Part shown: positions 14,144-43,488 of the stretch, in pieces | Numbering within the stretch: position 1 is the first letter of the stretch | Layout: the number at the start of each line of letters is the position of its first letter | Virus record (IMG/VR): IMGVR_UViG_3300037422_000481 | DNA length: 43,488 bases | From: a virus | Reading direction: 5' to 3' (one strand) | The notes under the pieces: generated by a model | What the model saw: only the letters and a program-made list of their open reading frames with translations | Told to the model about the DNA's origin: nothing | Databases searched by the model: none | Made by a program: the position numbers and the translations under genes

Positions 14144-15009
14144 GAGGTTTGCTCCTTCGTCATCGACTCGAGGAGGGCCCCGAGTTGCGCCTGGTCGGGC
14201 GTGTACCAGGTGGGCAAGCCGATGTCGGTGGGCAAGCCGGAGAGGTCGGGCCACTGACCGCTCTTCTGGCAGGCCGCGAAGACCTGCAGCAGGAAGTCGA
14301 TCTCGAGGCGCCCGAGGTTGATGGCTTCCTGCGTCAGGCGGTACACCGCCGCGTCGTACGGAGCGCAGCGCTCGTAGGCCACGCAGTAGTAGGCCGGCAG
14401 ACGCCCTTCGTGCGTGGCCGCGTAGCCCCACGAGTACCAGGCCGCCTGCAGGTGCAGCTTCTGGCTCGCGATCGTGCGCGCGAACGAGAAGAGCGAGCAG
14501 TCCTCGGTGGTCTTGAGGTCGCAGATGACGTCGGGCCCCGGCAACAGGATGTCGAGGCGCCCCTTGCACGGCGTGCCGTCCGGGAGCTGCCAGGCGAGCG
14601 TGACCTCACGCATCGCGCCCGGGTGCTCGAGCAGGAGCTTCACGTAGGGCTTGGCCCGGATGGACGCGGCGATGCCGCGGATCGCTGCGCCTTGGTTCGC
14701 GGTGAGACACACCGCGTCGGGATGTTCAGCCTCGAAGACCTTCCATTCCTTGAGGCGACGGTCCGAGACGGGTCCGATCGCGTGCGCCGCCTCGAAGCGC
14801 GCCGGCTCGAGGATGGCGCAGTGCACCGCCTTGCCGACGAGCTGCGCGTCGGTCTCTTCGTCGTCCGGATGGTCCTTCCTGTAGCGGTAGCGCGCGGGGC
14901 TTCGCGAGAGCTCGACGAGGTCGCTGCGCGAGAGCGCGTCCGTCTGCAGGTACTGAGCCCAGCCGATGTCCTTGTGAACGCCTGGAGAGAGAGAGGTCAC
15001 GGTTTCCAT
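14140..15009 (-). CDS. PD-(D/E)xK exonuclease (RecB/RecE-C-terminal/YqaJ-like), 289 aa.
   Basis: GRLDILLPGPDVICDLKTT (D...DxK) and QKLHLQAAWY (QxxxY) are typical of RecB-family phage exonucleases. ATG 15009 is preceded by AAGGAA with an 8-nt spacer. Confidence 0.7.
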   Translation of the reverse strand: METVTSLSPGVHKDIGWAQYLQTDALSRSDLVELSRSPARYRYRKDHPDDEETDAQLVGKAVHCAILEPARFEAAHAIGPVSDRRLKEWKVFEAEHPDAVCLTANQGAAIRGIAASIRAKPYVKLLLEHPGAMREVTLAWQLPDGTPCKGRLDILLPGPDVICDLKTTEDCSLFSFARTIASQKLHLQAAWYSWGYAATHEGRLPAYYCVAYERCAPYDAAVYRLTQEAINLGRLEIDFLLQVFAACQKSGQWPDLSGLPTDIGLPTWYTPDQAQLGALLESMTKEQTS

Positions 15010-15254
15010 AGGTCCTGTTCCTTGCAGTGGAGAATGTCGGCGCAGGCCTTGATCAGCCAGCGCTGTCTGGGTCGTGGCCCTGGCGCGTCCCGTCCGTCCA
15101 GCGTCGCGTAGAGGCCAGAGAGCGACGGCACGGGGAGGGGGCGTCCGTTGGGGCTCGGCCTCCGGCACGAGAGCCCGTCGCGGATGGCCTGCATCGAGAG
15201 TCGCAGCGCAAGGCGCCGGGCGCGGAAGTAGCGGCCTTGCCAGGGGGTCTTCAT
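14997..15254 (-). CDS. Small basic protein, 85 aa. Possible HTH regulator.
   Basis: Track ORF. The N-terminal ...RARRLALRLSMQAIRDGLS... is weakly XRE/Cro-like. It is the third ORF of the early/recombination block, after the two short ORFs 15453-15626 and 15265-15456. Confidence 0.45.
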   Translation of the reverse strand: MKTPWQGRYFRARRLALRLSMQAIRDGLSCRRPSPNGRPLPVPSLSGLYATLDGRDAPGPRPRQRWLIKACADILHCKEQDLWKP

Positions 15255-16269: not shown

Positions 16270-16595
16270 GTGTTCCTTTCTTCGTGGGGTTTGACCTGCC
16301 GCCCGGGCGCCTCGGTGCGCTCCCACATGCGGGCGATGCGCACGTGTTCCTCCGCCAGCACCAGAACGTTGTCGAGTTTGAGGCCTTGCTGGGTCATCCG
16401 CTCCGTGAACAGCGTCTCGAGTCTGCTCACGAGAGCCGGCGTTGCCTCCTGGGCCGCGGCCATGCGGTCCATCGCCTGCGTGATCCGTCGCAGAAAGAAT
16501 CCGATCGTGACGATGCCGCTGATCACGACCGCCATCAGCAGCCAAGCGACGACGCCGACGTCCTTGACGAGGTCAGGGGACGGAAACTGTTCCAC
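16266..16595 (-). CDS. Single-pass membrane protein, about 109 aa.
   Basis: One hydrophobic helix (VGVVAWLLMAVVISGIVTIGFFL) is followed by a charged helical region. GTG 16595 is the assumed start. It overlaps the giant ORF end by 23 nt. Confidence 0.55.
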   Translation of the reverse strand: MEQFPSPDLVKDVGVVAWLLMAVVISGIVTIGFFLRRITQAMDRMAAAQEATPALVSRLETLFTERMTQQGLKLDNVLVLAEEHVRIARMWERTEAPGRQVKPHEERNT

Positions 16596-19500
16596 GCGCG
16601 GTCGTGTCTGCGCTGAGGCGCCGGATCGCCGAGATTCTCCGGAGCAGCTCACGCGCGTGCTCGCTCTCCGAGCTGCGCAGCTGCGGTCCGAGGAAGGAAC
16701 CCGAGGGACGATAGGGCTCGTAGCGGTTCCGGATCACCTGCGCGATCGTGTCGGCCGAGAGTGCTCCGCGCAAGCTGCGCATGATCTCGCTGTCCGTGAG
16801 GCCGAGCCCTCGCGCGGCGCTGAGGGCCGCCTGGAAGTCCTCCCACAGGCGGCTCCTGGCGCGCTCGGTCGCTCCGTACGCCTCGACCAGGTCCTCGTCA
16901 CTCACGCGGCCGCGCTTGCCGGCCACGCGCGAGAGGATCGAGGTCGCGTCCGCGCTCTGCCGTGCAAACTCGCGCGCCAGCTGGTGCAGGGCCTGGCGCG
17001 TGTCGACCGAGCTCATGCGCACGCCCGAGAGCATCGCGAGCGTCTCCACCCCCGGATCGTAGACGCGGCCGTACTGCGTCACCTCGCCCTGCAGGCCGCG
17101 CGCGATGCGCCGCAGGCTCGTCGCGGTGCCCGGCTCGACCGCCTTGCCGAGGTGCGCCAGGACGTCGCGCGTTTGGGCAAGCGTGGAGTCCTCGGGGTCG
17201 TAGATCTGGTTGTCGAACTCGTCGCGGTTGTACCAGAGGGCGTCGATCACGGCCTTGGTCGCGATCTCCTCGGAGAAGAACGGCGCCAGCACGTTGGCGG
17301 CGCCGCGGCGCGCAGCGTCCTCCCAGTCGTCGCCGCGCAGGAAGGCCATCAGCGGCTTCTTGAGGTAGCTGTGCGGGTCGAGGTAGCTGATGTCGACGTA
17401 GGTGCGCGCGCCTTCGCTGTTCTCCGCCAGCCACAGGAGATCCGAGTCACGCGACCACGGCGGAAGGAACTTGCGCGCCGCCTCGTCGTCGTCGTCGGTC
17501 ATGCCCACGAGGTAGCGCGCCAGCGCTGCGAGTCCCGCTGTCCAGCCGGCGGCGAGGAAGGTGCCGGCGAGCCGCCGTGCGCCGATCACGCGCACACCGC
17601 TCGTCTGGCTCCCGAGCTCGCTGCGGATCTGCATGATCGTGTTCTTCGCCGTGCGCATCACCTCCCACGGGAAGCTCACGAAGGTGCCGACCAGCGGGAA
17701 CTGGCGCAGCTGGCGCACCGCGCGCGGCACCATCGAGTAAGTCGGGAAGACGTTGCGCACGATCTCGGCGGTCTTGCGCTCGAGCTCGTCGGCGCTGAGG
17801 CGCGGCTCGGCCTTGCGGTAGGCCGCCTTCTCGTTCTCCCACGCGAAGAGCTTCCAGAAGTCGTCCTGCGCGCCGTACACGCGCGAGAAGAAGTGGAGGG
17901 CACGCACGCCCTTCGCCTTGGCGCTGTCCGGATCGAACATGGACGCATCGGCGACGTGCACGTCCTCGAGCAGCGCGCGCAACTCCTGGCCGTGTGGGCT
18001 CTCGTGGATCACGCCGAGCTCGACTGCGCGGCGCAGGTAGGCGCGCCAAGCCGGCCGCGAGAGCGCGTGGAACTCCGCGGCCATGCCCTTGAGCGCCGGA
18101 GCGAACTTGCCGGCGCGGAAGTAGCCTTGCGCCAGGGCGAAGCCGGTGTTGCCGAGGTTGTTCCGGACCGTGGTCATGACCGAGAGCACGGTCTTCGAGT
18201 ATTTCGCGATCCCGTTGATTGCGACCCACCAGCGCCACGCCGTGTCCAGGCTCGCCGGCTCCATCTGCTTGAAGGCGTCGCGGATCTCCGGCGTGGTGTA
18301 GAGCCCGTTCAGCGGCGCGTAGACGGCCGAGGCCTCACCCGCGATGCGCGCCTTCGCCTCGGGCGGGATGGCCGGATCGTCGCCCTCCCACAGGTAACGC
18401 CCGAGACCATCGGCACGTACGGCCGCCAGGAACTCGTGGTTCCCGATCGTGAAGGCCATCTTCGAGACCGAGCGCATGTAGTTGACGCGCGCGTCCTTGT
18501 ACTCGCCCCACAGCGCGCGGATCTCGACCGGGACGTTCTTCCTGCGCTTCATGAAGGAGAGATCCTTCGTCCCAAGCTTCGCCTGGGCCATGACGCGCAC
18601 CGGCCCGTCGGCGGCCTTGCCCTCGAAGAGCAGCCGCTCGATCACGGCCTCGAGCGCGCGCGGCTGCTGGCGCGCCTGCAGCACGCCGATCTCGCGCTGC
18701 ACGCGCGCCATGCGCCGCTGCGTCGAGCCAAGCCGCGCCAGGTCCTTCTTGGTGGGCTTGGACACGGCCTCGAGCGCAGCCTCGAGGCCGGAGAGCGCGC
18801 CCAGCAGTCGGCCAGCTTGGAACTCGCGACGGGAGTACTCCTGCGCGATGAAGGCCTTCGCCGCGTTGCGCGCTTGCACGGGAACCTTCTCGGCCCACTG
18901 CGGGTCGTCGAAGGCCCGGTAGCTGCGCGTCGCGTAGAGCTCGAGGTTCTTCGTGATCACCGGCACCAGGCGCTGGTCGACGACGCCGCTCGAGATCAGG
19001 CGCTGCGAGAGCTCCTTGATGTGGTTGCGCGCGGCCTGCACGGCGTTGCCTAGCTTGACTGGGAGCGCGCCGCGCGCGGTCGGGTCCTTGAGGGCGTCGT
19101 CGACCAGCGCGACCTGGGCGGGCGTCAGCTTCTTGCCAAAGGTCGCACGCAGCGCCGCGACCAGGTCGTGCTCGATCTCCTCGGCGCGCCGCATGTGCGC
19201 GTTGATCCAGCCATCGCGCCGGATCTTCGAGGCGAAGGGCCCCTCGGGCAGTCCTGCGGCCGCGGTGAAGTTGCGGCGCCAGCCTCTACCGAGCGAGAAG
19301 AGCACTGGAGCGCCGCCGCCTTCGCTGAACTCGTTCGCGATCTGTTGCTCGATGGGCAGGTTCTCTTCGGCAATGAAGGACGCTTGCCCACCCGCGAGAT
19401 CACGCGCTCGAGCCGCGAGACCCTCAAGCCGTGCCGCCACCCGCGTTGGCTTCTCCTTCAGCACGGAGCGCAAGATCGCGACGGCGGTCGCGTCGCTCTT

Positions 19501-22500
19501 CCATCCCACGTCGATACCAGGCATGACGGCTTGCCGCAGAACGTCAGCCAGCGGCTGATTCGTCTGCACGACCTCGGCGGCTCCCTGAGCCACGTGAAGC
19601 ATCGTGTCCGCGAACCCGGGCGCGCGCGCCTTCAACGTGACGAGCGCCGGAAGGGCCCGCAGTAAGACGTTCCGAGTCGCTGGTGGCGTCTCCACGAGCG
19701 TCCGCACGTCGCCGATCACGCTGCCGAGCAGTGCGTCCTCGATGACCTGCTTCCCGCTCTGAGTCGGGATGCCGCGCCGTGGATCGAAGAGCTCGGCCAT
19801 GTCCCGTTGTCCCAGCGCACCGGCCCGCACCATCGTCCGCGCGATGTCTCTCGCCTTGCCCGCGTCGCCGAGCGCGTCACGCAACGTGCCTTCGCCGATC
19901 ACGCCCGCAATCGAGCTCGCGACCTCGGCCGTGATTTTCGATCCGCGCGACACGGCTTCGGTCGTAGCGCCCTTCCCGGTCGTAAGCGACTCGTTCAGGA
20001 CGCGCGAGAGCTCGCCAGGTGCGCCTTCGCGGCCTGGCTCGACGATGCGCACCAGAACCGGATCGGCGATCCCGAGCGGTTCGATGCCGAAGCGCTTGGC
20101 CGCCTTGACCATGCCCGCGCGAATCTCTTCCGCTTGCGGACCGGCTCGTGAGTAGGCGAGCTGCATCCCCATCGTGCGCGCATTGCCCCCGAGCACGACG
20201 CCCTTGCTCGTCACGATCGGAGGACCGTCGACCGGCGAGGGTGTGTCAGTCGTGAGCAGCGACACCTTGGGAGCGTTGGCGATCGCTCGCACTGTCTCCC
20301 GCATCGGCGCGCCCTCAACGGGATCGTCGTAGGGGCGCTCGTTCAGGTCGCCGGCCGGGTTGCGGACGAACCCGCGTCGCACGTCATGGCTCGGCACGAG
20401 CTCGCTGGCTGCCACGATGGCATAGGTCACGGGCAGGGTACGACCCTCGGCGAGTTCGACCGTCGATGCCTCCCCGGAGCGAACGAGGATTTCCAGTTCT
20501 TGTCCAGGCTGGATCCGGCTACCCTTGAGGGGTAGTCTTCCCCCGACGATGCCGCTTCCTGATTCCTTTCCTGCTGGAACAACCTTCTGGGATTGCAGTG
20601 ACGTTCCCGTGGTGGCCACTCCAGGGCTGGTCTGCACGGCCTTCGATGTGCCGGACGGGCGGCGTTTCCCCTGCACGACGGTCGATAGCGACGGCGTGCC
20701 GATCTCGGAGGCGGCCTTCCGCGCCATGGTGCCCAAGGCCATCGCTCGACTGGCCGCGTTCCAAGCCGAGTCGTAGACCGCGCGCTGCTTGGCCTCGAGC
20801 TGGTCGATGCGGCGCTGCTGCTCACCCGTACGTGGGCCTCGAGCGCGCTGCAACCGCTGCATCTCTTCGTACTCGAGATGGAGGCGCTCCTTCGCCTCGA
20901 TCATTCTAGGCACGTTGATCTGCACCTCGGCGTGCAGGGCACCCAGGTCGAAGTGCATGAGTATGTCGCGGTAGCCGGTCGTCACGATCGGCGCCGTGAA
21001 GTCGCGGAACTTCACCGGCTCACCGAACCGTCTGCGCAACTCGACGACGGCCGCTTCGGCCTGCTCGAGCGTGTCCACCACGACGGTGCCGCGCAGGATG
21101 TCGCGCACTCGCGTCGCGTCGCCTTGATAGTCGTGCAGCGCTTTCACCAGCGCCCGAGCCATGCTCTTCACGCCAGGCAATAACGGCTTGTGGTGCGAGC
21201 CCACGGCCTTCGCCACCGCGCGAATGGAGCGGCCGAAAGAGGGCTCGCGCCTTCGCGCCGCAGCCAAGAGCTTGACCAACGTCCGCCGCGCCCGCAGTTC
21301 GACGGCGCGCAGATCCAGTTTCCGCGGCTTGCGCTCCTTGGGCGGCGCAGCGGCGAGGCGTTCACGCTTCTTCTTGCCGCGCTGCCGGAATCCGACCCGG
21401 CGCGGGCGCGCCTCCAGCCCTTCGAGCTCGAGCTCCATACGCGAAGGCTGTATGCGCCGCGTGACCTCCAGGCGCGGGGGCTTCGGCAGCTTCGCGAGGC
21501 GGCGCTCGAGCACGCGGACTCGAGCCTCCGCGCCTGAGCGACCACGGAGTGCGCGGATCTCGGCCTCGAGCTTCCCGCGCTTCTGGCGCACGCGCTTCGC
21601 CTGCGGGCCGGTGAGAGCCTGCTGCGAGGGGATCCAAGTTGGTTGAGGGATGCCCCGTTGCGCTTCGCGCGCGGCCGGAACGGCACGCTGGCTGGGCTCT
21701 ACAGCCCTCTGCCGACGGGGAAGTTCTCCACGGACAGGAATCCGGCGTCCCTCTTCCGGCCATGCGGCGCTCGTTCCTGCCGGTGCGGCAGGGCCGGCCG
21801 CAATGGCAGCCGCTGCCGGCCTTCTCGAGGGACGCCGGTAGCCCTCGATCGTGGCGAAGGCCTGCTGCACGAGCCGCGCGATCTCTGGGATGCGCGCCGG
21901 CTCGATGACGATCTCCTGGTCGGTCTCGGCGAGTTCGTCCCTGAGCTCTCGCAGCGCCTTCTCCGTCGACGTCTCCAGGTGCACGCCCGCGCGGCGCACC
22001 ATCCGGATCAGCGCGTCGATCATGCGCCGCAGGAGGCCGGGGCGCTCCGCAGCTTTGCGGAAGCGCTCGCCCTCGAAGAGGAGCCCGCCGCGCTCTTCCA
22101 GGTAGTTCGAGACCGCCTCTTCCGCCTGGCGCTCTGGGCTCAAGCCCTGGGCCTTGTAGCGTTCCCTGACGTCGAGCTCGGTCGCCGCGAAGCCCTCCGG
22201 ATCGACCTCCTTCAGATCGACGGCGAGCTGGTTCGCGGTGTCGACGGCCGTGTCGCCAGCCATGTCCTCGCGCACGACCTGGGCGAGGTGGTGGTAGGCC
22301 TCGTGGAGGAGCAGCCGCCGCTCGAGCACCTTGTCCGCGGCCGCGACGTCGAAGACCAGCGCGCGCTGCTCGGCCACGTAGCCGGCAGGGGCCGCTCCGC
22401 GATCGCCCTCTTCTTCCTCCGTCGGTTCGTCGGTGTACTCGACGAAGACCGCTTCAGCGCCCAGGCGGCGCGCGCGCTCGGCCACGCGAGCCTGAGCGGC

Positions 22501-23772
22501 GCTCCGGGGCTCCACCACGGCGCCCGTGCGCCCCTGGCGGCCTAGGAAGGTTGCAGCGGCGCGGCGGCCACCTGCGGACGCCGGCGCGACGTAGGGGATA
22601 TCGTCCGGTGCAGAGCCCGGTGATGCATCGGGCACAGCCACGTCGCCTTCAGCGGCTGCGAATAGTCCGCGTGGTGTGCCTCGACCTTCGAGCTCTTGCA
22701 CACGGCGCAGGGCAGCTTCTTCACCAAGCCCCTGCGCACGTAGACGCGCAAGTAGCTGCGCGCGATCGCCCTCCGGCGCGTCTCGCCCACTAACGGGTGT
22801 GCCTTCCTCCAGACCCTTGTCTTCGCGTTCTGACACGGACGGCAGTACCCGCCGACGCCCTTCGGCGTCCGCGCGCAGTTCGGGCACAGACCGTCCTTCC
22901 GCCTCATGTTGTGGAACAGTACCGCCCCCAACCTCCGCCGTCGAGGCCAGGGCCGAGAGGAGTCCGCCAGCGACCGCCGGCACCACCAGGGCCTCCCCGC
23001 TGGCCCAGCGCTGCATGAGTTCTTCCAGGGGTTTTCTTGCCTGGTCATGGCGCGAGATGTAGCGCGCCGTGACGTCGGCCAGCACCTGCTGGAAGTTCTC
23101 CTGCAGCACCTCTTCACCGGCCTCGAGCGCGGCCGTGCGGATGAAGCGCGAGAGCATGCGCCCGCTCGCCTTGTCGGCGAGCCCGAGCACGCGCCGCGCT
23201 TGGCCGGCGATCGGGACCGCCTCGCTCGCACCCTCGATCACGCCCAAGAGCGCCGCGAGGAGAGCCGCGTCCTGTGCTTCCTCGGACTCCGGGTCCTCGA
23301 AGGAAGCCAGCGCCTCCTTGTAGCGCGGCCCGACGGTCGCCAGCACGCCCGAGGTGCCAGCCATGAGCGGCGCCGCTACTGGCGCGCTCGCGCCGAGACC
23401 CACGAGGCCCGCCGTGCCGAGCGCGGTCGCGCCCAGGAATCCAAGGCCACTGCCGACGCCCTCGACCGTCTTCTCGAAGAGCGACACGGGCGCGGCGCCA
23501 GCACGCTCGCGTTGTTGCCCGAGCCAGCGCGCGGCGTCACCCATGCGCGGGATGCCCAGTACCTCGCCGGTCTCGGCCGCGCCCTGCACGACCCCGAGCG
23601 CGCCCCGCGCGAGACCTCCGACGATCGTGGGCGGGACGCGCTTGATCTTGGGGCCGAAGAGCCTCCGCAGCTCTTCCTCGAGCGGATCCTCTTCCACCTG
23701 CGCAGCAGGAGCATGCGCGCCGCTGAACAACGTGCGCAGCTCCTGCTCGAGCGGATCCTCCGCGTCCCTCAT
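16573..23772 (-). CDS. Formal 2,399-codon ORF for a giant multidomain (polyvalent-type) putative internal-virion or ejected protein. It may not be one continuous gene (see the nested HNH gene).
   Basis: ATG 23772 (MRDAEDPLEQELR...) overlaps the TGA of the upstream gene (ATGA). The first 398 codons of track ORF 16573..24966 are shadow of gene 23769-25247. Contents:
- Gly/Ala-rich hydrophobic segments (about 23340-23480).
- HEAYH (22291-22305).
- An RSH-like segment (20857-21180).
- A ParB-like segment (20090-20439).
- About 1,100 unassigned C-terminal residues.
Third-position G/C collapses in this frame across about 22545-22925. Confidence 0.55.
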   Translation of the reverse strand: MRDAEDPLEQELRTLFSGAHAPAAQVEEDPLEEELRRLFGPKIKRVPPTIVGGLARGALGVVQGAAETGEVLGIPRMGDAARWLGQQRERAGAAPVSLFEKTVEGVGSGLGFLGATALGTAGLVGLGASAPVAAPLMAGTSGVLATVGPRYKEALASFEDPESEEAQDAALLAALLGVIEGASEAVPIAGQARRVLGLADKASGRMLSRFIRTAALEAGEEVLQENFQQVLADVTARYISRHDQARKPLEELMQRWASGEALVVPAVAGGLLSALASTAEVGGGTVPQHEAEGRSVPELRADAEGRRRVLPSVSEREDKGLEEGTPVSGRDAPEGDRAQLLARLRAQGLGEEAALRRVQELEGRGTPRGLFAAAEGDVAVPDASPGSAPDDIPYVAPASAGGRRAAATFLGRQGRTGAVVEPRSAAQARVAERARRLGAEAVFVEYTDEPTEEEEGDRGAAPAGYVAEQRALVFDVAAADKVLERRLLLHEAYHHLAQVVREDMAGDTAVDTANQLAVDLKEVDPEGFAATELDVRERYKAQGLSPERQAEEAVSNYLEERGGLLFEGERFRKAAERPGLLRRMIDALIRMVRRAGVHLETSTEKALRELRDELAETDQEIVIEPARIPEIARLVQQAFATIEGYRRPSRRPAAAAIAAGPAAPAGTSAAWPEEGRRIPVRGELPRRQRAVEPSQRAVPAAREAQRGIPQPTWIPSQQALTGPQAKRVRQKRGKLEAEIRALRGRSGAEARVRVLERRLAKLPKPPRLEVTRRIQPSRMELELEGLEARPRRVGFRQRGKKKRERLAAAPPKERKPRKLDLRAVELRARRTLVKLLAAARRREPSFGRSIRAVAKAVGSHHKPLLPGVKSMARALVKALHDYQGDATRVRDILRGTVVVDTLEQAEAAVVELRRRFGEPVKFRDFTAPIVTTGYRDILMHFDLGALHAEVQINVPRMIEAKERLHLEYEEMQRLQRARGPRTGEQQRRIDQLEAKQRAVYDSAWNAASRAMALGTMARKAASEIGTPSLSTVVQGKRRPSGTSKAVQTSPGVATTGTSLQSQKVVPAGKESGSGIVGGRLPLKGSRIQPGQELEILVRSGEASTVELAEGRTLPVTYAIVAASELVPSHDVRRGFVRNPAGDLNERPYDDPVEGAPMRETVRAIANAPKVSLLTTDTPSPVDGPPIVTSKGVVLGGNARTMGMQLAYSRAGPQAEEIRAGMVKAAKRFGIEPLGIADPVLVRIVEPGREGAPGELSRVLNESLTTGKGATTEAVSRGSKITAEVASSIAGVIGEGTLRDALGDAGKARDIARTMVRAGALGQRDMAELFDPRRGIPTQSGKQVIEDALLGSVIGDVRTLVETPPATRNVLLRALPALVTLKARAPGFADTMLHVAQGAAEVVQTNQPLADVLRQAVMPGIDVGWKSDATAVAILRSVLKEKPTRVAARLEGLAARARDLAGGQASFIAEENLPIEQQIANEFSEGGGAPVLFSLGRGWRRNFTAAAGLPEGPFASKIRRDGWINAHMRRAEEIEHDLVAALRATFGKKLTPAQVALVDDALKDPTARGALPVKLGNAVQAARNHIKELSQRLISSGVVDQRLVPVITKNLELYATRSYRAFDDPQWAEKVPVQARNAAKAFIAQEYSRREFQAGRLLGALSGLEAALEAVSKPTKKDLARLGSTQRRMARVQREIGVLQARQQPRALEAVIERLLFEGKAADGPVRVMAQAKLGTKDLSFMKRRKNVPVEIRALWGEYKDARVNYMRSVSKMAFTIGNHEFLAAVRADGLGRYLWEGDDPAIPPEAKARIAGEASAVYAPLNGLYTTPEIRDAFKQMEPASLDTAWRWWVAINGIAKYSKTVLSVMTTVRNNLGNTGFALAQGYFRAGKFAPALKGMAAEFHALSRPAWRAYLRRAVELGVIHESPHGQELRALLEDVHVADASMFDPDSAKAKGVRALHFFSRVYGAQDDFWKLFAWENEKAAYRKAEPRLSADELERKTAEIVRNVFPTYSMVPRAVRQLRQFPLVGTFVSFPWEVMRTAKNTIMQIRSELGSQTSGVRVIGARRLAGTFLAAGWTAGLAALARYLVGMTDDDDEAARKFLPPWSRDSDLLWLAENSEGARTYVDISYLDPHSYLKKPLMAFLRGDDWEDAARRGAANVLAPFFSEEIATKAVIDALWYNRDEFDNQIYDPEDSTLAQTRDVLAHLGKAVEPGTATSLRRIARGLQGEVTQYGRVYDPGVETLAMLSGVRMSSVDTRQALHQLAREFARQSADATSILSRVAGKRGRVSDEDLVEAYGATERARSRLWEDFQAALSAARGLGLTDSEIMRSLRGALSADTIAQVIRNRYEPYRPSGSFLGPQLRSSESEHARELLRRISAIRRLSADTTARGTVSVP
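20090..20439 (-). other. ParB-N-terminal-like (DdrB-ParB type) segment inside the giant ORF.
   Basis: YAIVAASELVPSHD...NERPYDD...GPPIVTSKGVVLGGNARTMGMQLAY matches the ParB-like layout (...SHD...PR.R...GxPIV...xxGNxRxxA) seen in polyvalent proteins of phages and plasmids. By-eye assignment. Confidence 0.45.
20857..21180 (-). other. RelA/SpoT-homologue (RSH) synthetase-like nucleotidyltransferase segment inside the giant ORF.
   Basis: The segment reads GVKSMARALVKAL...VRDILRGTVVV...TTGYRDILMHF...AEVQINVPRMIEAKERLHLEYEE. It parallels the RSH synthetase motifs in the same order: RxKxxxSxxxK, DxxGxRxI, GYxSxH, EhQIRT, HxxYK. Confidence 0.55.
22291..22305 (-). other. HExxH zinc-metallopeptidase-type motif inside the giant ORF (LLLHEAYHHLAQ).
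   Basis: The codons cac gag gcc tac cac were read on the minus strand. The preceding ~70 residues (AEAVFVEYTD...GYVAEQRALVFDV) resemble the start of a zincin-like domain. This is motif-level evidence only. Confidence 0.45.
22542..22907 (-). CDS. HNH-type endonuclease-like zinc-finger protein, 121 aa. It is encoded out of frame inside the giant ORF and may be a mobile homing-endonuclease cassette.
   Basis: MRRKDGLCPNCARTPKGVGGYCRPCQ...KKLPCAVCKSSKVEAHHADYSQPLKATWLCPMHHRALH matches the common phage HNH pattern C-x2-C...(E)AHH-x-DY-x-x-PL-x-x-x-WLC-x-x-x-H-x-x-x-H. This is the C-terminal part of track ORF 22542..23231. Third codon positions are almost all G/C in this frame, but mixed in the giant-ORF frame over the same bases. 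Confidence 0.7.
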   Translation of the reverse strand: MRRKDGLCPNCARTPKGVGGYCRPCQNAKTRVWRKAHPLVGETRRRAIARSYLRVYVRRGLVKKLPCAVCKSSKVEAHHADYSQPLKATWLCPMHHRALHRTISPTSRRRPQVAAAPLQPS

Positions 23773-25247
23773 GACCTCTTCGTCTTGATGCGTTTCTGCT
23801 GCGCCGTCACCTTGCGCTGCAGGCGGCTTCCCTTCGGTTGCTTCGGCGGGTTCTCGATGAACTCGCGCAGCTGCTTGCGCTTCTCGGCCGGACTGAAGTC
23901 GCTGCGCTCTTCCGTGACGCTGCGTGGGCCCTCGGTCGTGCTCGTGCCGAGCCACCTTAGCTCCGGCTTCTCGGGTGCAGCCTCGCGCTCCGTGAAGTCG
24001 CGCTGCTGCCATGCGGCCGAGAGTTCCTGCTTCACGTCCTCCGGCAGAGCCTCGACGTCGGCGCGCTCGAGCACGGCCTTGACGGCCTGCACGACCTCTT
24101 CGGTGCCGCGCGCCGCGCGCACGACCTCGAGCAACTCCGCGCGCACCTCGGGCTCCAGCGGTCGCACGGTGCCGCCTGGCGCCTCGGGCGGGCCAGCCTC
24201 TTCGGGCTCGTCGAAACGCCCCGTCAGCGTGTAGCGCGCGAAGCGGTCGAGCAGCGCGGCTTGCTCGGCCTGCTTCATGAATATGAAGCCCTGGTCCTTC
24301 ATCAGATCGGAGAGCAGGCGCTTCCTCAGCTCGACTTCGTCGTGCTGGTTGGGCGAGAACATCAGCCCGGAGATCTCCGCGAGTGCCTTCTCCGGGTCGA
24401 CCACGCGCCAGTTCATGCCCCACTGCTCGAGCAGGAAGTTCGCTTTGGCTTGGCGCTGGCGCCACTCGCTCCCGGTGATGTTTAGGTAGGGCGGCGGAGC
24501 CGGCAGCGCGATCGCTTCGCTCGCGGACTGGTGGAAGCGCAGGAAGGTCGCCTGGACCGAGCGCTCGCGCGCGATCGTCGCGCGCTCTTCCATCAGGAAG
24601 CGCTCGAGCACGGCCGGGTTGACGTCCGGCCGGTTCTCGTCCTCGAGATCGGCCAGCATCTGCATGCCCTGCTCGGGCGAGAGCACGGGCTCCTCGCCGT
24701 TCGGGCCAGGCTGCATCGCGTCCTGGATCTGGCCACGCACCGCGGCCGTGCTCTTCTCGAGGCCGCGCTTGACCGCCTGCTGCTGCAGGAACTGCATCGC
24801 GTCGGCGCGGTCCTCGGGGGCCATCGTGGCCATGGCCTCGCGGATCCGCGCGTTCAAGCCCAGGATGGGAGCGATCGAGGCGGCGAAGATCTGCGGCACG
24901 TGGGCCGTGTTCGCAGCGGGCATGATCGACCCGGGCGCGCGTCCGCGGATCGCGTCCATGGCCCACATGTCGAAGTCGGTCTTCGCCTGGCGTTCGCGCA
25001 GCTCGCGCGCGCGGTCGTCCTGCTCGAAGCGGAAGCGCTCCTGGGCCTGCGTCAGCGCGGCCCGCTGCGTCTCGCCGGCACGCGCCTCCTGGCGGTCGAA
25101 GCGCGCTTCGCGCCGCAGCGCCAGGTCGTGCTCGCGCTCGCCCTCCTTCTTGCGCAGCTTGAAGAGCCGCTCGTCCTGCAGGAAGCCGGCGATGCCCTTG
25201 CCGGTCTCGCTGACGCCCTCGACGATGTCGGCGATGACGCTCGGCAG
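23769..25247 (-). CDS. Putative internal virion protein, 492 aa if started at CTG 25247 (399 aa from the first ATG at 24968).
   Basis: Track ORF 23769..24968. The 279 nt upstream are open in the same frame with near-uniform G/C third positions (LPSVIADIVEGVSETGKGIAGFLQDERLFKLRKKEGERE...). They contain no ATG, GTG or TTG. CTG 25247-25245 sits 7 nt after AAGGAG (25260-25255). Confidence 0.6.
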   Translation of the reverse strand: MPSVIADIVEGVSETGKGIAGFLQDERLFKLRKKEGEREHDLALRREARFDRQEARAGETQRAALTQAQERFRFEQDDRARELRERQAKTDFDMWAMDAIRGRAPGSIMPAANTAHVPQIFAASIAPILGLNARIREAMATMAPEDRADAMQFLQQQAVKRGLEKSTAAVRGQIQDAMQPGPNGEEPVLSPEQGMQMLADLEDENRPDVNPAVLERFLMEERATIARERSVQATFLRFHQSASEAIALPAPPPYLNITGSEWRQRQAKANFLLEQWGMNWRVVDPEKALAEISGLMFSPNQHDEVELRKRLLSDLMKDQGFIFMKQAEQAALLDRFARYTLTGRFDEPEEAGPPEAPGGTVRPLEPEVRAELLEVVRAARGTEEVVQAVKAVLERADVEALPEDVKQELSAAWQQRDFTEREAAPEKPELRWLGTSTTEGPRSVTEERSDFSPAEKRKQLREFIENPPKQPKGSRLQRKVTAQQKRIKTKRS

Positions 25248-39258: not shown

Positions 39259-39771
39259 CTAGTCTTCGCTGGGCCGCAGCGCTTGGAAGCCCGACGCCAG
39301 CATCATCGACGGGCGCCGGAAGTACACGTGGATCCGGTAGTCGTCGCCGCCCGTAGCGGGGATGAGCAAGCCCCACGGCTGGCTGATCACGATCCCGCGC
39401 GAGAACATGATCGGCGTCGCCGGCAGATTCTGGAGCGTCGGAGAGACCGCGCGGTGGTCCGTCGCGACCGGCATGTTGGCGAGTCCGCTGAGGGCCGCGC
39501 CGGTCTCGTCGACGAACGAGAAGACGCGCGGGTCGGTCGCCGGGAAGACGATGATCTGGTAGCCCTCGAGCACGGTGAACGGCTCGAGCCGGATGATGCT
39601 CGCCTCCTTGTCGGGCGTGTAGAGTCCGCCGCCCGAGGGGAAGATCGGTACACCCGTGGCGCCGGCCACGGAGGTGAGCACGTCCATGAAGTCGGCTGCG
39701 ACGTCGGCTTGCCCAACGGCCGTGGTCCTTTCATCGGACGGTTCGGGACCGTCCCCTGCTTCACGCGCCAT
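39259..39771 (-). CDS. Hypothetical protein, 170 aa, between terL and the portal.
   Basis: Track ORF. ATG 39771 overlaps the end of terL by 11 nt. Confidence 0.6.
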   Translation of the reverse strand: MAREAGDGPEPSDERTTAVGQADVAADFMDVLTSVAGATGVPIFPSGGGLYTPDKEASIIRLEPFTVLEGYQIIVFPATDPRVFSFVDETGAALSGLANMPVATDHRAVSPTLQNLPATPIMFSRGIVISQPWGLLIPATGGDDYRIHVYFRRPSMMLASGFQALRPSED

Positions 39772-41326
39772 CGTCGAACCTCACTTTGTCGTGCTCCAGG
39801 ATCGCTCCAATGCTGTCCTCAGGGACCGTTCTCACCTGCTCCCGCGGCGGAGTCAAGTCCTTGCCGAAGGCCCAGACCGCAGCGTACTGAGTCGCGTCGC
39901 ACCCGTGGTCGGGACAGGCCCGGTCCGGCTCCTCCTTGACGGGCTTGCCATCCTTCCACTGCGCCCACACGTAGCCGGGGATCTCGTCCTCGGTGCAGTT
40001 GGGCTTGTGCTCCTCGGCGAGCGCCTGATCGGGAGACTCGAGCGCGTCCCAGCACAGGTAGAGCCGCGGCGGGGATTCGGCGAGCTCAACGCCTTGGCCT
40101 TCTCCGGGCGCGAGCCCGTAGCGCACCGTGTCGATGCGCACCTGCTTGTCTTGCACGCCTCCGATCGCCAGGTGCGGTGTGTCGCGCGCGCCAACCTCGA
40201 TCAGCCGGCGATTCAGGAACTCGATCAGGTCCGGACGCGACGGGTCACAGACAACAGCCGCGAGCCCATAGCGCTTGTAGAACCGCGCCACGTGCTCCGC
40301 CCAGGCGTCCAGCTGCAACGCTCGTCTGTAGATTTCGTGGATCCGGTAGATGCGCTCGCACTTGCCGACCACGCCCCACACCTGGAGACAGCCGGGTGCG
40401 CGGTGGCCCCAGTCGAAGCTCGCGAAGTACCAGTCGAAGGTCAGGCGCCCCCGCTCGTCGCGTCGATGGCCGTCCTTGAGCGCGGTCCCGTCGACGCCCG
40501 TCGCATCGCGGTAGACCATGTGCTTGTCGCGATCGAAGATCTCCCACACCTGGCCTTCGGCTCCCACCCACTCGCCGCGCAGGAGACGGCCGCGCTGCGG
40601 ACCCGTGAGGGTCTCGAGCTTCGCCATGTACTTCGCGCCGTCGAGCGTCAGCTCGCCCGAGACCTGGTCGTACAGCACCGGGTTGTCGGTGTGGCGCGAG
40701 AGCAGGCGACGCATCTGCATCTCGCCTTCGCGCGGCTCGCCGAGCAACCGCACCAGCTCGGGCGTGCGCTCGAGTCGTCGCTTCGCGCGCCGGTTGAGCC
40801 AGTGCTGCTCGTGGTCCGGGTTCGTATCGGCGATGATCTGGTTCCAGGGCAGGTGCCCGTTCCGGCAGCGCGTGAACAGCGCTTGCCAGTCCTCCTCCGA
40901 GAGCTCGCGCGCCTCGAGCGCGACGATGATGTCGTACTCCGTCGACATGATCCGGCTCGACTTGTCCATCCCGCCGAGGACCACGCGCGAGCGCCCGCGA
41001 TAGGTAACGCCGTCGACCGTGTTCATCCCCCACGGGAACTCGTAGGCGTGCCTCTGCTCGGCCGAGCCGCCCCTCCGCATGCAGGCGTCGTCGGGGAGTA
41101 CGCGCTGCTCCCACGTCACGCAGCCCGACTCCGTGAGCGACGCGCGCGTCTTGCGCACGAGCAGGATGCGCACCCCAGGGAACGTGACGCAGACCCAGTA
41201 GACGTACTCAAGGACCCCGCGCGTCTTGCCGCAGCCGGCCGGTCCCTCAAGCAGGATCTCCTGCTCGCGCGCGAAGAAGAGATCTCGGATGGCCCCGCAA
41301 GGCCGGAAGCTGACGGCACTTACCAC
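39761..41326 (-). CDS. terL: Terminase large subunit, 521 aa.
   Basis: Walker A is GPAGCGKT. Walker B-like is YDIIVALEA. The C-terminal RNase-H-like nuclease acidic motifs are ASFDWGH and PDHGCDATQYA. The GTG 41326 start is uncertain because GAGG is immediately adjacent. Confidence 0.9.
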   Translation of the reverse strand: MVSAVSFRPCGAIRDLFFAREQEILLEGPAGCGKTRGVLEYVYWVCVTFPGVRILLVRKTRASLTESGCVTWEQRVLPDDACMRRGGSAEQRHAYEFPWGMNTVDGVTYRGRSRVVLGGMDKSSRIMSTEYDIIVALEARELSEEDWQALFTRCRNGHLPWNQIIADTNPDHEQHWLNRRAKRRLERTPELVRLLGEPREGEMQMRRLLSRHTDNPVLYDQVSGELTLDGAKYMAKLETLTGPQRGRLLRGEWVGAEGQVWEIFDRDKHMVYRDATGVDGTALKDGHRRDERGRLTFDWYFASFDWGHRAPGCLQVWGVVGKCERIYRIHEIYRRALQLDAWAEHVARFYKRYGLAAVVCDPSRPDLIEFLNRRLIEVGARDTPHLAIGGVQDKQVRIDTVRYGLAPGEGQGVELAESPPRLYLCWDALESPDQALAEEHKPNCTEDEIPGYVWAQWKDGKPVKEEPDRACPDHGCDATQYAAVWAFGKDLTPPREQVRTVPEDSIGAILEHDKVRFDDGA

Positions 41327-41420
41327 CCTCTATTGGAAATTCTCTGGAAACTCGGCGCGACGTGGCTAGGCTGTGTCTGCACAAGGCGACGTGTTCGCCT
41401 ACCAACGGGAGACTATACCG
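41327..41420. promoter_or_regulatory. Divergent intergenic region between terL (minus) and the plus-strand island. Presumed promoter region.
   Basis: This is one of the most AT-rich stretches I noticed in the window (tattggaaattctctggaaactc). TGGAAA is repeated with 11-bp spacing. GGGAGA lies 8 nt before ATG 41421. I could not identify a confident -35/-10 pair. Confidence 0.4.
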
Positions 41421-41654
41421 ATGAGCAAAGAAGCGTACATGACAGTCATCACCTACCAACATGCGCCGCACTACGGCGGGCGCGGTATCGCGCTCTGCGC
41501 GTCCTGTGCGACCGAGGACACGCGGACGGAGGCGTGTGATCTACCGTCGCTCGGGCCGGTCTCGCACGGGCTCCACGCGGGGCAGTGCCAGTGCCCATGC
41601 CACGCCACGCGCGCCAGCGCCGTGCGCGTGGAAGGCGAGGAGGCGCAGCCGTGA
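41421..41654 (+). CDS. Cys/His-rich small protein, 77 aa. First gene of the plus-strand island.
   Basis: ATG 41421 follows GGGAGA with an 8-nt spacer. The Cys/His-rich segment is ...CASC...C...HGLHAGQCQCPCH.... Its C-terminus EGEEAQP and stop lie in the same 27-nt junction motif that ends both pentapeptide-repeat genes. Confidence 0.6.
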   Translation: MSKEAYMTVITYQHAPHYGGRGIALCASCATEDTRTEACDLPSLGPVSHGLHAGQCQCPCHATRASAVRVEGEEAQP

Positions 41655-42568
41655 GCGCCCTCGGCCCGATCCCCGCGCACCTGGCCGCGTACCCCTGGTA
41701 TGCGCCGCACCAGGCGTACCTGCTCTCGGTAAGCTCCGCTGCGTATGATCCAGGGGGGGCCACTCCGCAGCGGGCCGTGCTCGACCGTGCGAGTCTCGAC
41801 GGTGCGAGTCTCGACGGTGCGATCCTCGACGGTGCGAGTCTCGACGGTGCGAGTCTCGTCGGTGCGAGTCTCGACGGTGCGAGTCTCGTCGGTGCGCGTC
41901 TCGTCGGTGCGCGTCTCGACGGTGCGAGTCTCGTCGGTGCGATCCTCGACCGTGCGAGTCTCGTCGGTGCGCGTCTCGTCGGTGCGAGTCTCGTCGGTGC
42001 GCGTCTCGTCGGTGCGATCCTCGTCGGTGCGCGTCTCGTCGGTGCGAGTCTCGACCGTGCGCGTCTCGACGGTGCGAGTCTCGACCGTGCGCGTCTCGAC
42101 GGTGCGCGTCTCGTCGGTGCGCGTCTCGTCGGTGCGAGTCTCGACCGTGCGCGTCTCGTCGGTGCGAGTCTCGACCGTGCGCGTCTCGACGGTGCGCGTC
42201 TCGACGGTGCGAGTCTCGACCGTGCGAGTCTCGACCGTGCGAGTCTCGACCGTGCGAGTCTCGACGGTGCGATCCTCGACCGTGCGAGTCTCGTCGGTGC
42301 GACGATGCCCGACGGCCGCGTGTGGGAGGACTACCGCGCCGACCACTACGCCGGCATCTGCGACACGCCTGAGGTCCGCGCGCGCGCCGATGCCGCTTGG
42401 GACCGCCACACGTGGAAAGACTGCCCGTTGCGCGCGGCGTTGGGCCTCGATTCGGCGGCGGCTGCTGGGGACAAGGCGCTCCTCGTCGCTTGCTGGGTGG
42501 CCTGCTACGACGCGGACCTCCTGCCGGACCCGGTCGCGACCGCCAGCGGCGAGGAGGCGCAGCCGTGA
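41651..42568 (+). CDS. Pentapeptide-repeat protein 1, 305 aa. The core is 35 x A-[S/R/I]-L-[D/V]-[G/R] and is roughly charge-neutral.
   Basis: GTG 41651 overlaps the upstream TGA (GTGA), with GGAGG 8 nt upstream. It has 35 consecutive 5-residue units (41774-42298). These are flanked by a 41-aa N-terminal segment and an ~89-aa Cys-containing C-terminal domain. Confidence 0.85.
   Translation: MSALGPIPAHLAAYPWYAPHQAYLLSVSSAAYDPGGATPQRAVLDRASLDGASLDGAILDGASLDGASLVGASLDGASLVGARLVGARLDGASLVGAILDRASLVGARLVGASLVGARLVGAILVGARLVGASLDRARLDGASLDRARLDGARLVGARLVGASLDRARLVGASLDRARLDGARLDGASLDRASLDRASLDRASLDGAILDRASLVGATMPDGRVWEDYRADHYAGICDTPEVRARADAAWDRHTWKDCPLRAALGLDSAAAAGDKALLVACWVACYDADLLPDPVATASGEEAQP
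41774..42298 (+). repeat. Array of 35 x 15-nt units (consensus gcgagtctcgacggt) encoding the repeat core of protein 1.
   Basis: Read directly. After the first unit, every unit is gcg-[agt/cgt/atc]-ctc-[gac/gtc]-[ggt/cgt]. Confidence 0.95.
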
Positions 42569-43482
42569 GCGCCCTCGGCCCGATCCCCGCGCACCTGGCC
42601 GCGTACCCCTGGTATGCGCCGCACCAGGCGTACCTGCTCTCGGTAAGCTCCGCTGCGTATGATCCAGGGGGGGCCACTCCGCAGCGGGCCGTGCTCGACC
42701 GTGCGAGTCTCGACGGTGCGAGTCTCGACGGTGCGATCCTCGACGGTGCGATCCTCGACGGTGCGAGTCTCGACGGTGCGAGTCTCGACGGTGCGAGTCT
42801 CGACCGTGCGAGTCTCGACGGTGCGATCCTCGACGGTGCGAGTCTCGACGGTGCGAGTCTCGACCGTGCGAGTCTCGACGGTGCGAGTCTCGTCGGTGCG
42901 AGTCTCGTCGGTGCGAGTCTCGACGGTGCGAGTCTCGACCGTGCGAGTCTCGTCGGTGCGAGTCTCGACCGTGCGAGTCTCGACGGTGCGATCCTCGACG
43001 GTGCGAGTCTCGACGGTGCGAGTCTCGACGGTGCGAGTCTCGACGGTGCGAGTCTCGACGGTGCGAGTCTCGTCGGTGCGAGTCTCGACGGTGCGATCCT
43101 CGACGGTGCGAGTCTCGACGGTGCGAGTCTCGACGGTGCGAGTCTCGACGGTGCGAGTCTCGTCGGTGCGATCCTCGACGGTGCGATCCTCGACGGTGCG
43201 AGTCTCGACCGTGCGACGATGCCCGACGGCCGCGTGTGGGAGGACTACCGCGCCGACCACTACGCCGGCATCTGCGACACGCCTGAGGTCCGCGCGCGCG
43301 CCGATGCCGCTTGGGACCGCCACACGTGGGAAGACTGCCCGTTGCGCGCGGCGTTGGGCCTCGATTCGGCGGCGGCTGCTGGGGACAAGGCGCTCCTCGT
43401 CGCTTGCTGGGTGGCCTGCTACGACGCGGACCTCCTGCCGGACCCGGTCGCGACCGCCAGCGGCGAGGAGGCGCAGCCGTGA
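42565..43482 (+). CDS. Pentapeptide-repeat protein 2, 305 aa. The core is 35 units, mostly ASLDG, and is strongly acidic.
   Basis: It has the same start/stop architecture as copy 1, exactly 914 bp downstream. The flanking N- and C-terminal segments are essentially identical at DNA level; I saw one difference (K versus E in HTW[K/E]DCP). The core is at 42688-43212. Confidence 0.85.
   Translation: MSALGPIPAHLAAYPWYAPHQAYLLSVSSAAYDPGGATPQRAVLDRASLDGASLDGAILDGAILDGASLDGASLDGASLDRASLDGAILDGASLDGASLDRASLDGASLVGASLVGASLDGASLDRASLVGASLDRASLDGAILDGASLDGASLDGASLDGASLDGASLVGASLDGAILDGASLDGASLDGASLDGASLVGAILDGAILDGASLDRATMPDGRVWEDYRADHYAGICDTPEVRARADAAWDRHTWEDCPLRAALGLDSAAAAGDKALLVACWVACYDADLLPDPVATASGEEAQP
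42688..43212 (+). repeat. Array of 35 x 15-nt units encoding the repeat core of protein 2.
   Basis: It has the same unit grammar as 41774-42298, but I saw no cgt in the second codon. Confidence 0.95.
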
Positions 43483-43488
43483 GCGCCC
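43362..43488. repeat. Terminal direct repeat, right copy. It implies a circular, circularly permuted or terminally redundant genome, or an assembler k-mer overlap.
   Basis: Identical to 1-127 and to 42448-42574. Confidence 0.95.

Follow-up and report, generated by a model that had tools for sequence, protein, structure and literature searches.

Why should two adjacent phage genes be nearly identical at both of their ends and so different in the middle? The question is raised by IMG/VR virus record IMGVR_UViG_3300037422_000481, a 43,488-nucleotide (nt) stretch of DNA that was analyzed over its whole length and is called the window here, in which two tandem genes of equal length each encode a pentapeptide-repeat protein of 305 amino acids (aa). 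The best explanation, and one that we consider probable, is that the repeat array in each gene is a coding minisatellite, reshaped by slippage, unequal recombination, and gene conversion while selection acts on the surface of the protein. The argument depends on the following features of the two genes.

41651 to 42568, plus strand: repeat gene 1, the neutral paralogue, 918 nt encoding 305 aa (Asp plus Glu, 38; Lys plus Arg, 31)
Parts of gene 1, plus strand: N-terminal segment, 41651 to 41773; array, 41774 to 42298; C-terminal domain, 42299 to 42565; stop codon, 42566 to 42568
41774 to 42298, plus strand: array 1, 35 units of 15 nt, with 9 unit types
42416, plus strand: the sole difference between the copies outside the arrays, A (Lys) here versus G (Glu) at 43330
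42548 to 42574, plus strand: copy 2 of the 27-nt junction repeat, between the tandem gene copies
42565 to 43482, plus strand: repeat gene 2, the acidic paralogue, 918 nt encoding 305 aa (Asp plus Glu, 48; Lys plus Arg, 14)
Parts of gene 2, plus strand: N-terminal segment, 42565 to 42687; array, 42688 to 43212; C-terminal domain, 43213 to 43479; stop codon, 43480 to 43482
42688 to 43212, plus strand: array 2, 35 units of 15 nt, with 5 unit types
43213 to 43479, plus strand: C-terminal 89-aa helical domain of gene 2 (MPDGRVWEDY...GIC...AW..H.W..CP...)

Each protein is composed of a 41-aa N-terminus, 35 pentapeptides, and an 89-aa C-terminus, which gives 70 units over both. The first unit of both arrays is GCC GTG CTC GAC CGT, and the remaining 68 units all read GCG, then AGT, CGT, or ATC, then CTC, then GAC or GTC, then GGT or CGT. 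After unit 1, variation is confined to nucleotides 4, 5, 6, 11, and 13 of the 15-nt unit, every variant alters residue 2, 4, or 5, and synonymous variants of GCG or CTC number 0. In pentapeptide-repeat geometry, Ala and Leu point inward and positions 2, 4, and 5 lie on the surface. The two surfaces are not alike. The array of copy 1 has 21 Asp and 14 Val at position 4 and 22 Arg (12 at position 2 and 10 at position 5), for a net charge of +1, whereas that of copy 2 has 30 Asp and 5 Val at position 4 and 6 Arg, all at position 5 and 0 at position 2, for a net charge of -24. Within the genes, the 123 nt of 5' flank show 0 differences between the copies and the 270 nt of 3' flank show 1 (42416 versus 43330, Lys/Glu), in contrast to the arrays (47 differences in 525 nt of core versus 1 in 393 nt of flank; Fisher p = 4e-11). 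The initial annotation, made from the letters alone, had given the unit formula, the absence of synonymous Ala or Leu variants after unit 1, and the Asp, Val, and Arg counts of both cores; all of these are exact. Its picture of an acidic and a near-neutral paralogue with near-identical flanks around cores of equal length is likewise borne out, and its assignment of Ala and Leu to the inside and of positions 2, 4, and 5 to the outside agrees with Pfam, with the structure model, and with the established geometry.

The fold supports this reading of the units. Both proteins match Pfam PF00805 with 138 bits (cut-off, 20.2; E ~6e-41), and an AlphaFold2 model of copy 2 is a beta-helix with a predicted local distance difference test score (pLDDT) of >90 over residues 50 to 200. 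Foldseek matches in the PDB include HetL, NP275/276, Qnr, MfpA, AlbG, and the synthetic beta1 consensus solenoids, the last with a root mean square deviation of 0.9 Å over 177 columns. The arrays are thus modeled as a right-handed quadrilateral beta-helix with four pentapeptides per coil, in which 35 units would form 8.75 coils and, with the 4.8 Å rise per coil of known pentapeptide-repeat structures, a rod of ~42 Å. Against NCBIfam, the proteins score below the curated cut-offs for Qnr, MfpA, HetL, and PipB2 (18 to 117 bits versus 240 to 500), the Qnr models giving 18 to 44 bits versus cut-offs of 240 to 500 and MfpA 44 to 45 bits versus 360, and by these profile scores the repeat proteins fall outside all four families. 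No PADLOC defense model matches the proteins of the repeat genes. A weak Pfam match to WDGH (E = 0.07) does not recur across the family defined by the C-terminal domain.

Can the restriction of variation to the surface be read as selection? The window alone is insufficient to show it. Only 4 to 5 distinct variant codons are present. With 4 of them, 0 synonymous would be found with a probability of 0.44, and 5 variable sites would all fall in codons 2, 4, and 5 with a probability of 0.04. The initial statement that all variation is non-synonymous is therefore correct as a description but, taken from the window by itself, is not significant.

The evidence is instead found across comparable arrays in other phages. 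A search with degenerate DNA patterns that spanned three units in a row brought up ~100 loci from IMG/VR and metagenomes, from which 91 to 93 distinct arrays of at least 8 units were extracted for class-wide counts; a tblastn search with copy 2 returned 149 GenBank phage records, many of them annotated as pentapeptide repeat proteins. Outside the arrays, the recovered loci have no nucleotide similarity to the window. The commonest codon set is GCC-AGC-CTC-GAC-GGT, and the window's GCG-AGT-CTC-GAC-GGT is the major unit of no other recovered array. The idea that identical nucleotide units are common to unrelated phages was accordingly rejected, since other loci use AGC/CGC and codon sets differ between arrays.

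When variant codon types in 93 arrays are compared with the major codon of each array, positions 2, 4, and 5 show 399 non-synonymous versus 22 synonymous variants (121, 160, and 118 versus 1, 3, and 18 for the three positions in turn). The synonymous fraction at the surface, 22/421, compares with the 5/27 expected from single-step neighbors (p = 9e-16; normalized ratio, ~4.1). Synonymous variants in the Ala and Leu codons number 7 and 21, so that core and surface stand at 28 versus 22, where 6:5 is expected, as under neutrality. It is thus in the class of 93 arrays that the claim of non-synonymous variation holds as evidence.

The alternatives that are admitted also recur from array to array. 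Asp appears alongside Val in 78 of the 93 arrays, Ser alongside Arg in 66, and Gly alongside Arg in 58, and the minor codon is mostly a single-step neighbor of the array's own major codon (GAC/GTC, 66; GAT/GTT, 6; GGT/CGT, 21; GGC/CGC, 18; GGG/AGG, 7). Arrays that encode Ser with TCN (n = 8) never have Arg at position 2. As the same alternatives are reached through different base changes, selection on what point mutation supplies is indicated, and a mutator with a single signature is argued against. By sequence comparison, this points to convergent selection on surface residues across the class.

The arrays appear to be modular with respect to the domains at their ends. Those of the type A(S or R)L(D or V)(G or R) in L005, L006, L008, L010, and L015 (IMG/VR and JGI contigs) are fused to at least 4 unrelated C-terminal domains, one of which (…W H…GT.HCRAGW…) is also found in proteins of Ralstonia T7-like phages.

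How the arrays change is seen when close relatives are compared. The Caulobacter phages BL94 and RapA are ~97% identical, and the flanks of their repeat genes differ at 0/141 and 1/273 nt. Their arrays, however, hold 23 and 28 units, respectively; both draw on three common main unit types and on a terminal unit that they share, but the order is not the same. Loci L095 and L109 have identical flanks and a one-unit difference; in L054 and L078, the flanks are 97.8% identical and the arrays are different; and a block of 3 units is gained or lost between the Ralstonia T7-like phages So9 and So2. Caulobacter phages GB2A and RW were reported to differ by 2 single-base changes, two extra intergenic C bases, and a 375-bp deletion in the repeat gene (Ely and colleagues, PMC11053796). 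The deletion is exactly 25 units. Conserved flanks around a hyper-diverged core, which had at first been regarded as unusual, are therefore the normal state for phage genes of this class. In BL94 and RapA (L001 and L002), the difference between ANLTR and ANLDG units resembles a compensated frameshift (CTGGACGGGGCC versus CTGACGCGGGCC) rather than simple substitutions.

Within the window, the order of units in one array is essentially shuffled with respect to the other. Aligned in register, they show 47 differences, where random reordering of the copy 1 units gives 57 ± 4.2 (p = 0.02), and dropping the four shared leading units brings the in-register p to 0.09. A unit-level Needleman-Wunsch alignment with gaps, applied to the two arrays for residual positional homology, does no better than with permuted arrays. 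Certain combinations are missing: Val-4 never occurs together with Arg-5 in the window units (p = 0.004), nor Arg-2 with Arg-5 (p = 0.013), and both are present in other phages. Units therefore behave as haplotypes, not as independently mutated sites. In copy 1, Arg-2 recurs at the even lags 2, 4, and 6 (p = 0.006 to 0.02), with 9/12 on two opposite faces of the helix, which fits a two-unit block duplication or, equivalently, an enrichment on opposite faces. The Arg/Val stripes of the initial annotation thus survive weakly, in this period of two for Arg-2; Val and position-5 Arg have no face preference.

These observations can be brought together in one scheme. Replication slippage, unequal recombination, and short-tract conversion between misaligned units would duplicate, delete, and reorder units, and the array would in this way change much faster than point mutation changes the flanks. 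Such turnover would also erase neutral (synonymous) differences within an array. Selection would retain Ala and Leu in the core and admit a few single-step surface substitutions (Ser to Arg or Ile, Asp to Val, and Gly to Arg), by which charge and hydrophobicity could be tuned. As to the pair, the locus is a tandem duplication of 914 nt with a 27-nt direct repeat, GGCGAGGAGGCGCAGCCGTGAGCGCCC, at its boundaries; exact copies of this repeat lie at 41634, 42548, and 43462 (the last being identical with 101 to 127), with 0 expected by chance. The pair would have been born by this duplication along one of two routes: duplication in one genome followed by turnover of the arrays, or unequal crossing-over at the 27-nt repeat between co-infecting variants whose arrays already differed. 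It is conceivable that the phage's own RecE-like exonuclease promotes rearrangements between repeats. Of the diversification process that had been suggested earlier, the recombinational form, joined to selection, is upheld by the comparative data on relatives and on the 93 arrays; the targeted form is not, in view of an adenine test, the lack of a reverse transcriptase in the scanned open reading frames (ORFs), and the variety of base changes, to which we return below.

Several points weigh against this scheme. The equal length of 35/35 units has a chance of ~5% for two independent arrays of the class, and as slippage normally alters length, a minisatellite model does not predict it; equal length may hint at a constraint on length (for example, paired rods) or at a length-preserving process. 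The search pattern pre-restricted residues 2, 4, and 5 in three consecutive units, the class counts are of variant codon types and not of mutational events, and the arrays are not all independent. Lastly, no close relative of the window phage with intact arrays was found, and it is from other phages that turnover in the window phage is deduced.

Among the other explanations, the one that stands up best, although we think it rather unlikely, is that the array interiors are in part an assembly artefact, such that unit order, equal lengths, or the assignment of cores to copies would reflect a strain mosaic or a mis-resolved repeat. Bases 1 to 127 of the window are exactly the same as 43362 to 43488; the contig closes on itself, with 43,361 unique bases, and the overlap length is probably that typical of a short-read de Bruijn assembly at k=127. 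Of the repeats, only the flanks common to both copies (204 and 158 nt) exceed k, and the order of the two cores is consequently not fixed by k-mers alone. Arrays touch a contig or locus end in 47/94 comparable cases, and contigs from two other assemblies break at this very locus. One of them, L004 (2,394 nt; JGI sample 3300043185), is identical to window positions 43331 to 43488 followed by 128 to 2363 and starts one base after the Lys/Glu site, which is consistent with a branch there but ambiguous.

The other is informative in the opposite direction. The Logan k=31 assembly of SRR13020435 contains a 41,566-nt contig with ends 100% identical to the window at 98 and 41663 (41663 - 98 + 1 = 41,566), so that at each end the contig runs exactly 3 nt past the 27-nt repeat. 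For a compacted k=31 graph to stop at these points, the 30-mers "repeat + TCG" and "AGC + repeat" must be branch points, and this in turn requires reads that join the 3' flank of a repeat gene to the 5' flank of one. The tandem junction is therefore real and has independent support in the Logan break points. An exact search of IMG/VR for the junction gave no match. One gene with two alleles misjoined in tandem was considered and rejected on the same grounds, as the break points demand a real junction of 3' and 5' flanks. Inside either array, the number of repeated 126-mers is 0, so that each interior is a unique path at k=127, and 120 nt separate the Lys/Glu site from the last difference in the arrays, a distance that one 127-mer can bridge. 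Unit order inside the arrays rests on this one short-read assembly. The same kind of unit alphabet and scrambling is nonetheless present in genomes of cultured phages, and neither the set of units nor the confinement of variation to positions 2, 4, and 5 would be affected by a wrong order.

It could also be proposed that a recent duplication was followed by point mutation in place, under strong diversifying selection and without recombination, so that the 47 differences are 47 independent substitutions. This would account for the equal array lengths, which the minisatellite scheme does not, and for the identity of the first four units, and all differences are indeed single- or double-step codon changes. 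It would, however, require at least ~40 separate mutations at the 5 variable nucleotides of the unit, versus 1 substitution in 393 flanking nt, with an in-register similarity that is barely above that of permuted units. The missing haplotypes and the two-unit periodicity are left unaccounted for, and relatives change by indels of units. We therefore hold point mutation in place to be unlikely.

A dedicated diversification system, either a diversity-generating retroelement (DGR) or another templated or site-directed mutator that rewrites surface codons, is in our view very improbable. Variation limited to a few nucleotide positions would be expected of it, and at 22/47 differences copy 2 has A where copy 1 has C or T, which superficially resembles template-adenine mutagenesis. 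Caulobacter phages with similar arrays are also classified in Rauchvirus, which we take to be the genus of the DGR phage BPP-1. Nevertheless, 24/47 differences do not involve adenine (23 do, one of those in the reversed direction), and on this adenine test one array does not qualify as the DGR template of the other. The same residue alternatives are reached by different changes (GGT to CGT, GGC to CGC, and GGG to AGG) that are set by each array's own codons, and it is by whole units that arrays change. Among 20 ORF translations, 10 of which were compared with Pfam and 16 with PHROGs, none yielded a domain of a reverse transcriptase or of another enzyme of this kind; these translations are a partial gene set and not a full Pfam scan. 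Targeted mutagenesis was rejected on the non-adenine differences, the absence of this enzyme from the scanned ORFs, and the varied base changes in other arrays.

A constraint on the DNA or RNA itself (for example, a protein-binding or recombination-promoting array), with the protein pattern as a by-product, could draw on the six open frames and higher antisense G+C content at third codon positions (GC3), on T-ending codons in a GC3-rich genome, and on a JGI gene call that covers the C-terminal part only, but it is hardly credible beside a sense frame that is joined in frame to domains with protein homologues, the Pfam match cited above, and a class that shares a peptide pattern yet differs in codon sets, which indicates conservation at the protein level.

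The choice of reading frame deserves a further comment. All six frames are open across both arrays, and the antisense frame, which reads as TVETR repeats, has a GC3 of 0.80 to 0.84 versus ~0.6 for the sense repeat frame, the latter being low because the codons AGT, GGT, and CGT are used. These T-ending codons run against a genome GC3 of ~0.85 to 0.9. For Gly at position 5, GGT is the commonest codon across 91 phage arrays (38 arrays versus 29 with GGC), even in high-GC contigs. The antisense ORFs at 41471 to 42409 and 42505 to 43323 (minus strand; 312 and 272 aa) were rejected as genes, because the make-up of the repeat leaves every frame open and conserved domains are continuous with the sense frame alone. 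The JGI gene call at the locus is an 82-aa C-terminal ORF that begins at an internal GTG. Judged by its in-frame connection to N- and C-terminal segments that have protein homologues elsewhere, the sense frame is the real one.

The C-terminal domain offers a second line of comparison, as it is shared by the two copies and by other phage proteins. A word-index protein search with the 89-aa domain returned only the window itself; the family emerged by an exhaustive HMMER (phmmer) search, which yielded 54 representatives at E <= 1e-3, 43 of them at E <= 1e-10. In pentapeptide-repeat proteins of 46 to 314 aa, the domain occupies the C-terminal position, the sole exception being a weak repetitive match, P0053. 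The family alignment has the consensus MPDGR.WE.Y..DPLAGIC..PEAR.RA.AAWG.H.W..CPMH, with P5, G7, A31, W35, C43, P44, G50, D72, and L76 invariant. AlphaFold2, run with this alignment, gives five helices at pLDDT 90. The domain matches no Pfam family, and fold searches of the PDB and BFVD returned matches for the repeat part only. By these comparisons, the 89-aa domain represents a well-populated, unannotated family that lacks both a Pfam model and a structural match.

Within this family, Cys22 and Cys43 are near-invariant and His38 and His46 are frequent, and Cys22/His38/Cys43/His46 could form a C-H-C-H metal site, which is put forward as a possible candidate from the alignment. Both window copies have CPLR in place of the CPMH of most members, and the last His is thus absent from them. 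Two members, P0018 and P0028, also share the N-terminal segment PIPAHL..Y.WYAPHQA. The type of repeat varies among members, as some are ordinary and irregular and others near perfect (P0006 with ASLDR, ARLDG, ASLVR, and ARLVG). The contexts of members are phage-like, near terminase and portal genes or near primase, helicase, and methyltransferase genes. Three members with short arrays, L114 (ENA k141_141343), L115, and L116 (Logan SRR24319188 and SRR24319184), lie in phage replication or accessory modules, in one case following genes for primase, helicase, and N6/N4 methyltransferases and in another upstream of those for terminase, portal, and Mu F.

When the two repeat genes are placed into their genomic context, they are seen as the middle of a small operon. 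The remaining features of the operon and its surroundings are as follows.

39761 to 41326, minus strand: large terminase subunit, divergent from the repeat operon (PHROG 2, E = 4e-33)
41327 to 41420, no strand: divergent intergenic region of 94 nt and presumed promoter (56% GC versus 68% for the genome), a role suggested by the gene layout
41421 to 41654, plus strand: upstream 77-aa Cys/His-rich ORF, with a 3' end of GEEAQP-stop and the 27-nt junction, as in the repeat genes
41634 to 41660, plus strand: copy 1 of the 27-nt junction repeat, with the ribosome-binding site GAGGAGG, a stop codon, and an overlapping GTG start
118 to 393, plus strand: downstream 91-aa ORF, the last gene of the operon, with a GTG start that overlaps the stop of gene 2 via the third junction repeat

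As the genome closes into a circle, gene 2 is followed by the ORF at 118 to 393, and the plus-strand operon has four genes: the 77-aa ORF, repeat gene 1, repeat gene 2, and the 91-aa ORF. Each boundary between them is the same 27-nt sequence, the two repeat genes overlap in a GTGA start/stop, and a terminator-like hairpin at 571 to 594 lies 3' of the 91-aa ORF. The 77-aa ORF has the Cys/His motif CASC...C...HGLHAGQCQCPCH, and its last six residues, GEEAQP, are common to both repeat proteins because the 27-nt junction repeat extends into its 3' end. It has no match in Pfam, NCBIfam, or PADLOC; an identical 77-aa ORF is located at the end of the Logan contig. Elsewhere in the genome, an ORF of 2797 aa at 16573 to 24966 (minus strand) matches a PHROG virion structural protein (E = 3e-55 over residues 2126 to 2732), and a RecE/exonuclease VIII-like gene lies at 14140 to 15168 (minus strand; PHROG 412, E = 2e-61). 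Most other large proteins that were scanned have no PHROG or Pfam match. Taken together, these matches identify the genome as that of a tailed phage, and a very divergent one.

What might the two proteins do? At -0.69 per unit, the array of copy 2 stands at the far acidic end of the distribution for 92 comparable phage arrays (mean, -0.17; standard deviation, 0.25), only 5/92 of which are below -0.6, whereas copy 1, at +0.03 per unit, is typical of them. Spread over ~42 Å, with the same rise per coil as above, -24 corresponds to -0.57 e/Å, versus -0.59 e/Å for B-DNA. Extreme acidity, a DNA-like charge density, and a place in a small operon near a likely promoter together favor a DNA mimic, and we tentatively suggest that copy 2 could act as a decoy for, or an inhibitor of, a DNA-binding enzyme of the host (a defense nuclease or a topoisomerase). 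The neutral copy 1 might then have a different target or might be a partner of copy 2, joined to it via their shared C-terminal domain. As a pair, the two are accessory genes that are probably expressed early. Speaking against this reading are the mild acidity of the class as a whole, which means that DNA mimicry cannot be its general function, the absence of a sigma-70 consensus in the presumed promoter region at 41327 to 41420 when one was sought, and a searchable literature that holds no experimental function for any phage pentapeptide-repeat protein.

The fold, the family, and the annotation of pentapeptide-repeat proteins in phages are known. In the literature, no analysis of array variation in phage pentapeptide-repeat genes was found, the sole mention being the incidental 375-bp deletion. 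Nor did we find described near-perfect arrays with convergent, surface-restricted variation and rapid turnover, a tandem acidic/neutral pair, or the conserved C-terminal domain. These arrays are the fastest-changing part of otherwise nearly identical phage genomes, and the excess of surface over synonymous change, together with the repeated use of Ser/Arg, Asp/Val, and Gly/Arg from different codons, is the signature that would be expected of a protein of host interaction or counter-defense. As arrays break short-read assemblies and gene callers can miss array genes, the class is probably under-counted. The interest of the locus is moderate at present and would be higher if a counter-defense role were true, a hypothesis that is experimentally testable in cultured Caulobacter, Pseudomonas, and Ralstonia phages.

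Among known systems, the DNA-mimicking topoisomerase protectors Qnr, MfpA, AlbG, and McbG have in common with the window proteins the right-handed beta-helix with four sides (Foldseek E, 1e-6 to 1e-8), ~8 to 9 coils, a strongly negative surface (in the case of copy 2), and a C-terminal element that in the window proteins could mediate dimerization. Unlike them, the window proteins score 18 to 45 bits in NCBIfam versus cut-offs of 240 to 500, have no Qnr-type loops, are built of near-perfect rather than irregular repeats, carry an 89-aa C-terminal domain of their own, and are encoded by tandem phage genes, of which copy 1 is not acidic. The phage and plasmid anti-restriction proteins T7 Ocr and ArdA, which are DNA mimics, would resemble copy 2 as elongated polyanions with DNA-like charge density, by the linear estimate given above for copy 2, and as products of the start of an early operon, a position that for the window genes is presumed; the folds are unrelated and without homology, and the array class is not strongly acidic.

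A looser likeness is to transcription activator-like (TAL) effector repeats and coding minisatellites, in which near-identical repeats vary at a few specificity positions and recombine among themselves. The TAL repeat unit is 34 aa, versus 5 aa in the window arrays, and we know of no recognition code for pentapeptide arrays. By analogy, it could be speculated that near-perfect phage arrays are widespread, evolvable surface-code proteins, whose rigid rods are rapidly re-patterned in charge and hydrophobicity, in a TAL-like manner and by recombination among identical units, in an arms race with host DNA-binding defense or topology enzymes, and that the tandem pair combines an acidic decoy with a neutral partner via the C-terminal domain that they share, both kept at 35 units so that the rods match; we regard this wider picture as doubtful.

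Other phages carry arrays of a similar kind. Those of Caulobacter BL94 gp020 and RapA gp021, Pseudomonas Amjad_SA, and ~90 IMG/VR contigs have A-x-L-x-x units with no synonymous variation within an array and small alphabets at positions 2, 4, and 5, are scrambled between near-identical genomes, and sit in accessory or replication-module positions. They differ in codon sets and alphabets (such as ANLDG/ANLYG/ANLTR) and in N- and C-terminal domains (at least 4 C-terminal types), and they are encoded by single genes. The window's 35 units are among the longest of these arrays, with one complete array that is longer, and a tandem pair of acidic and neutral paralogues is seen in the window only.

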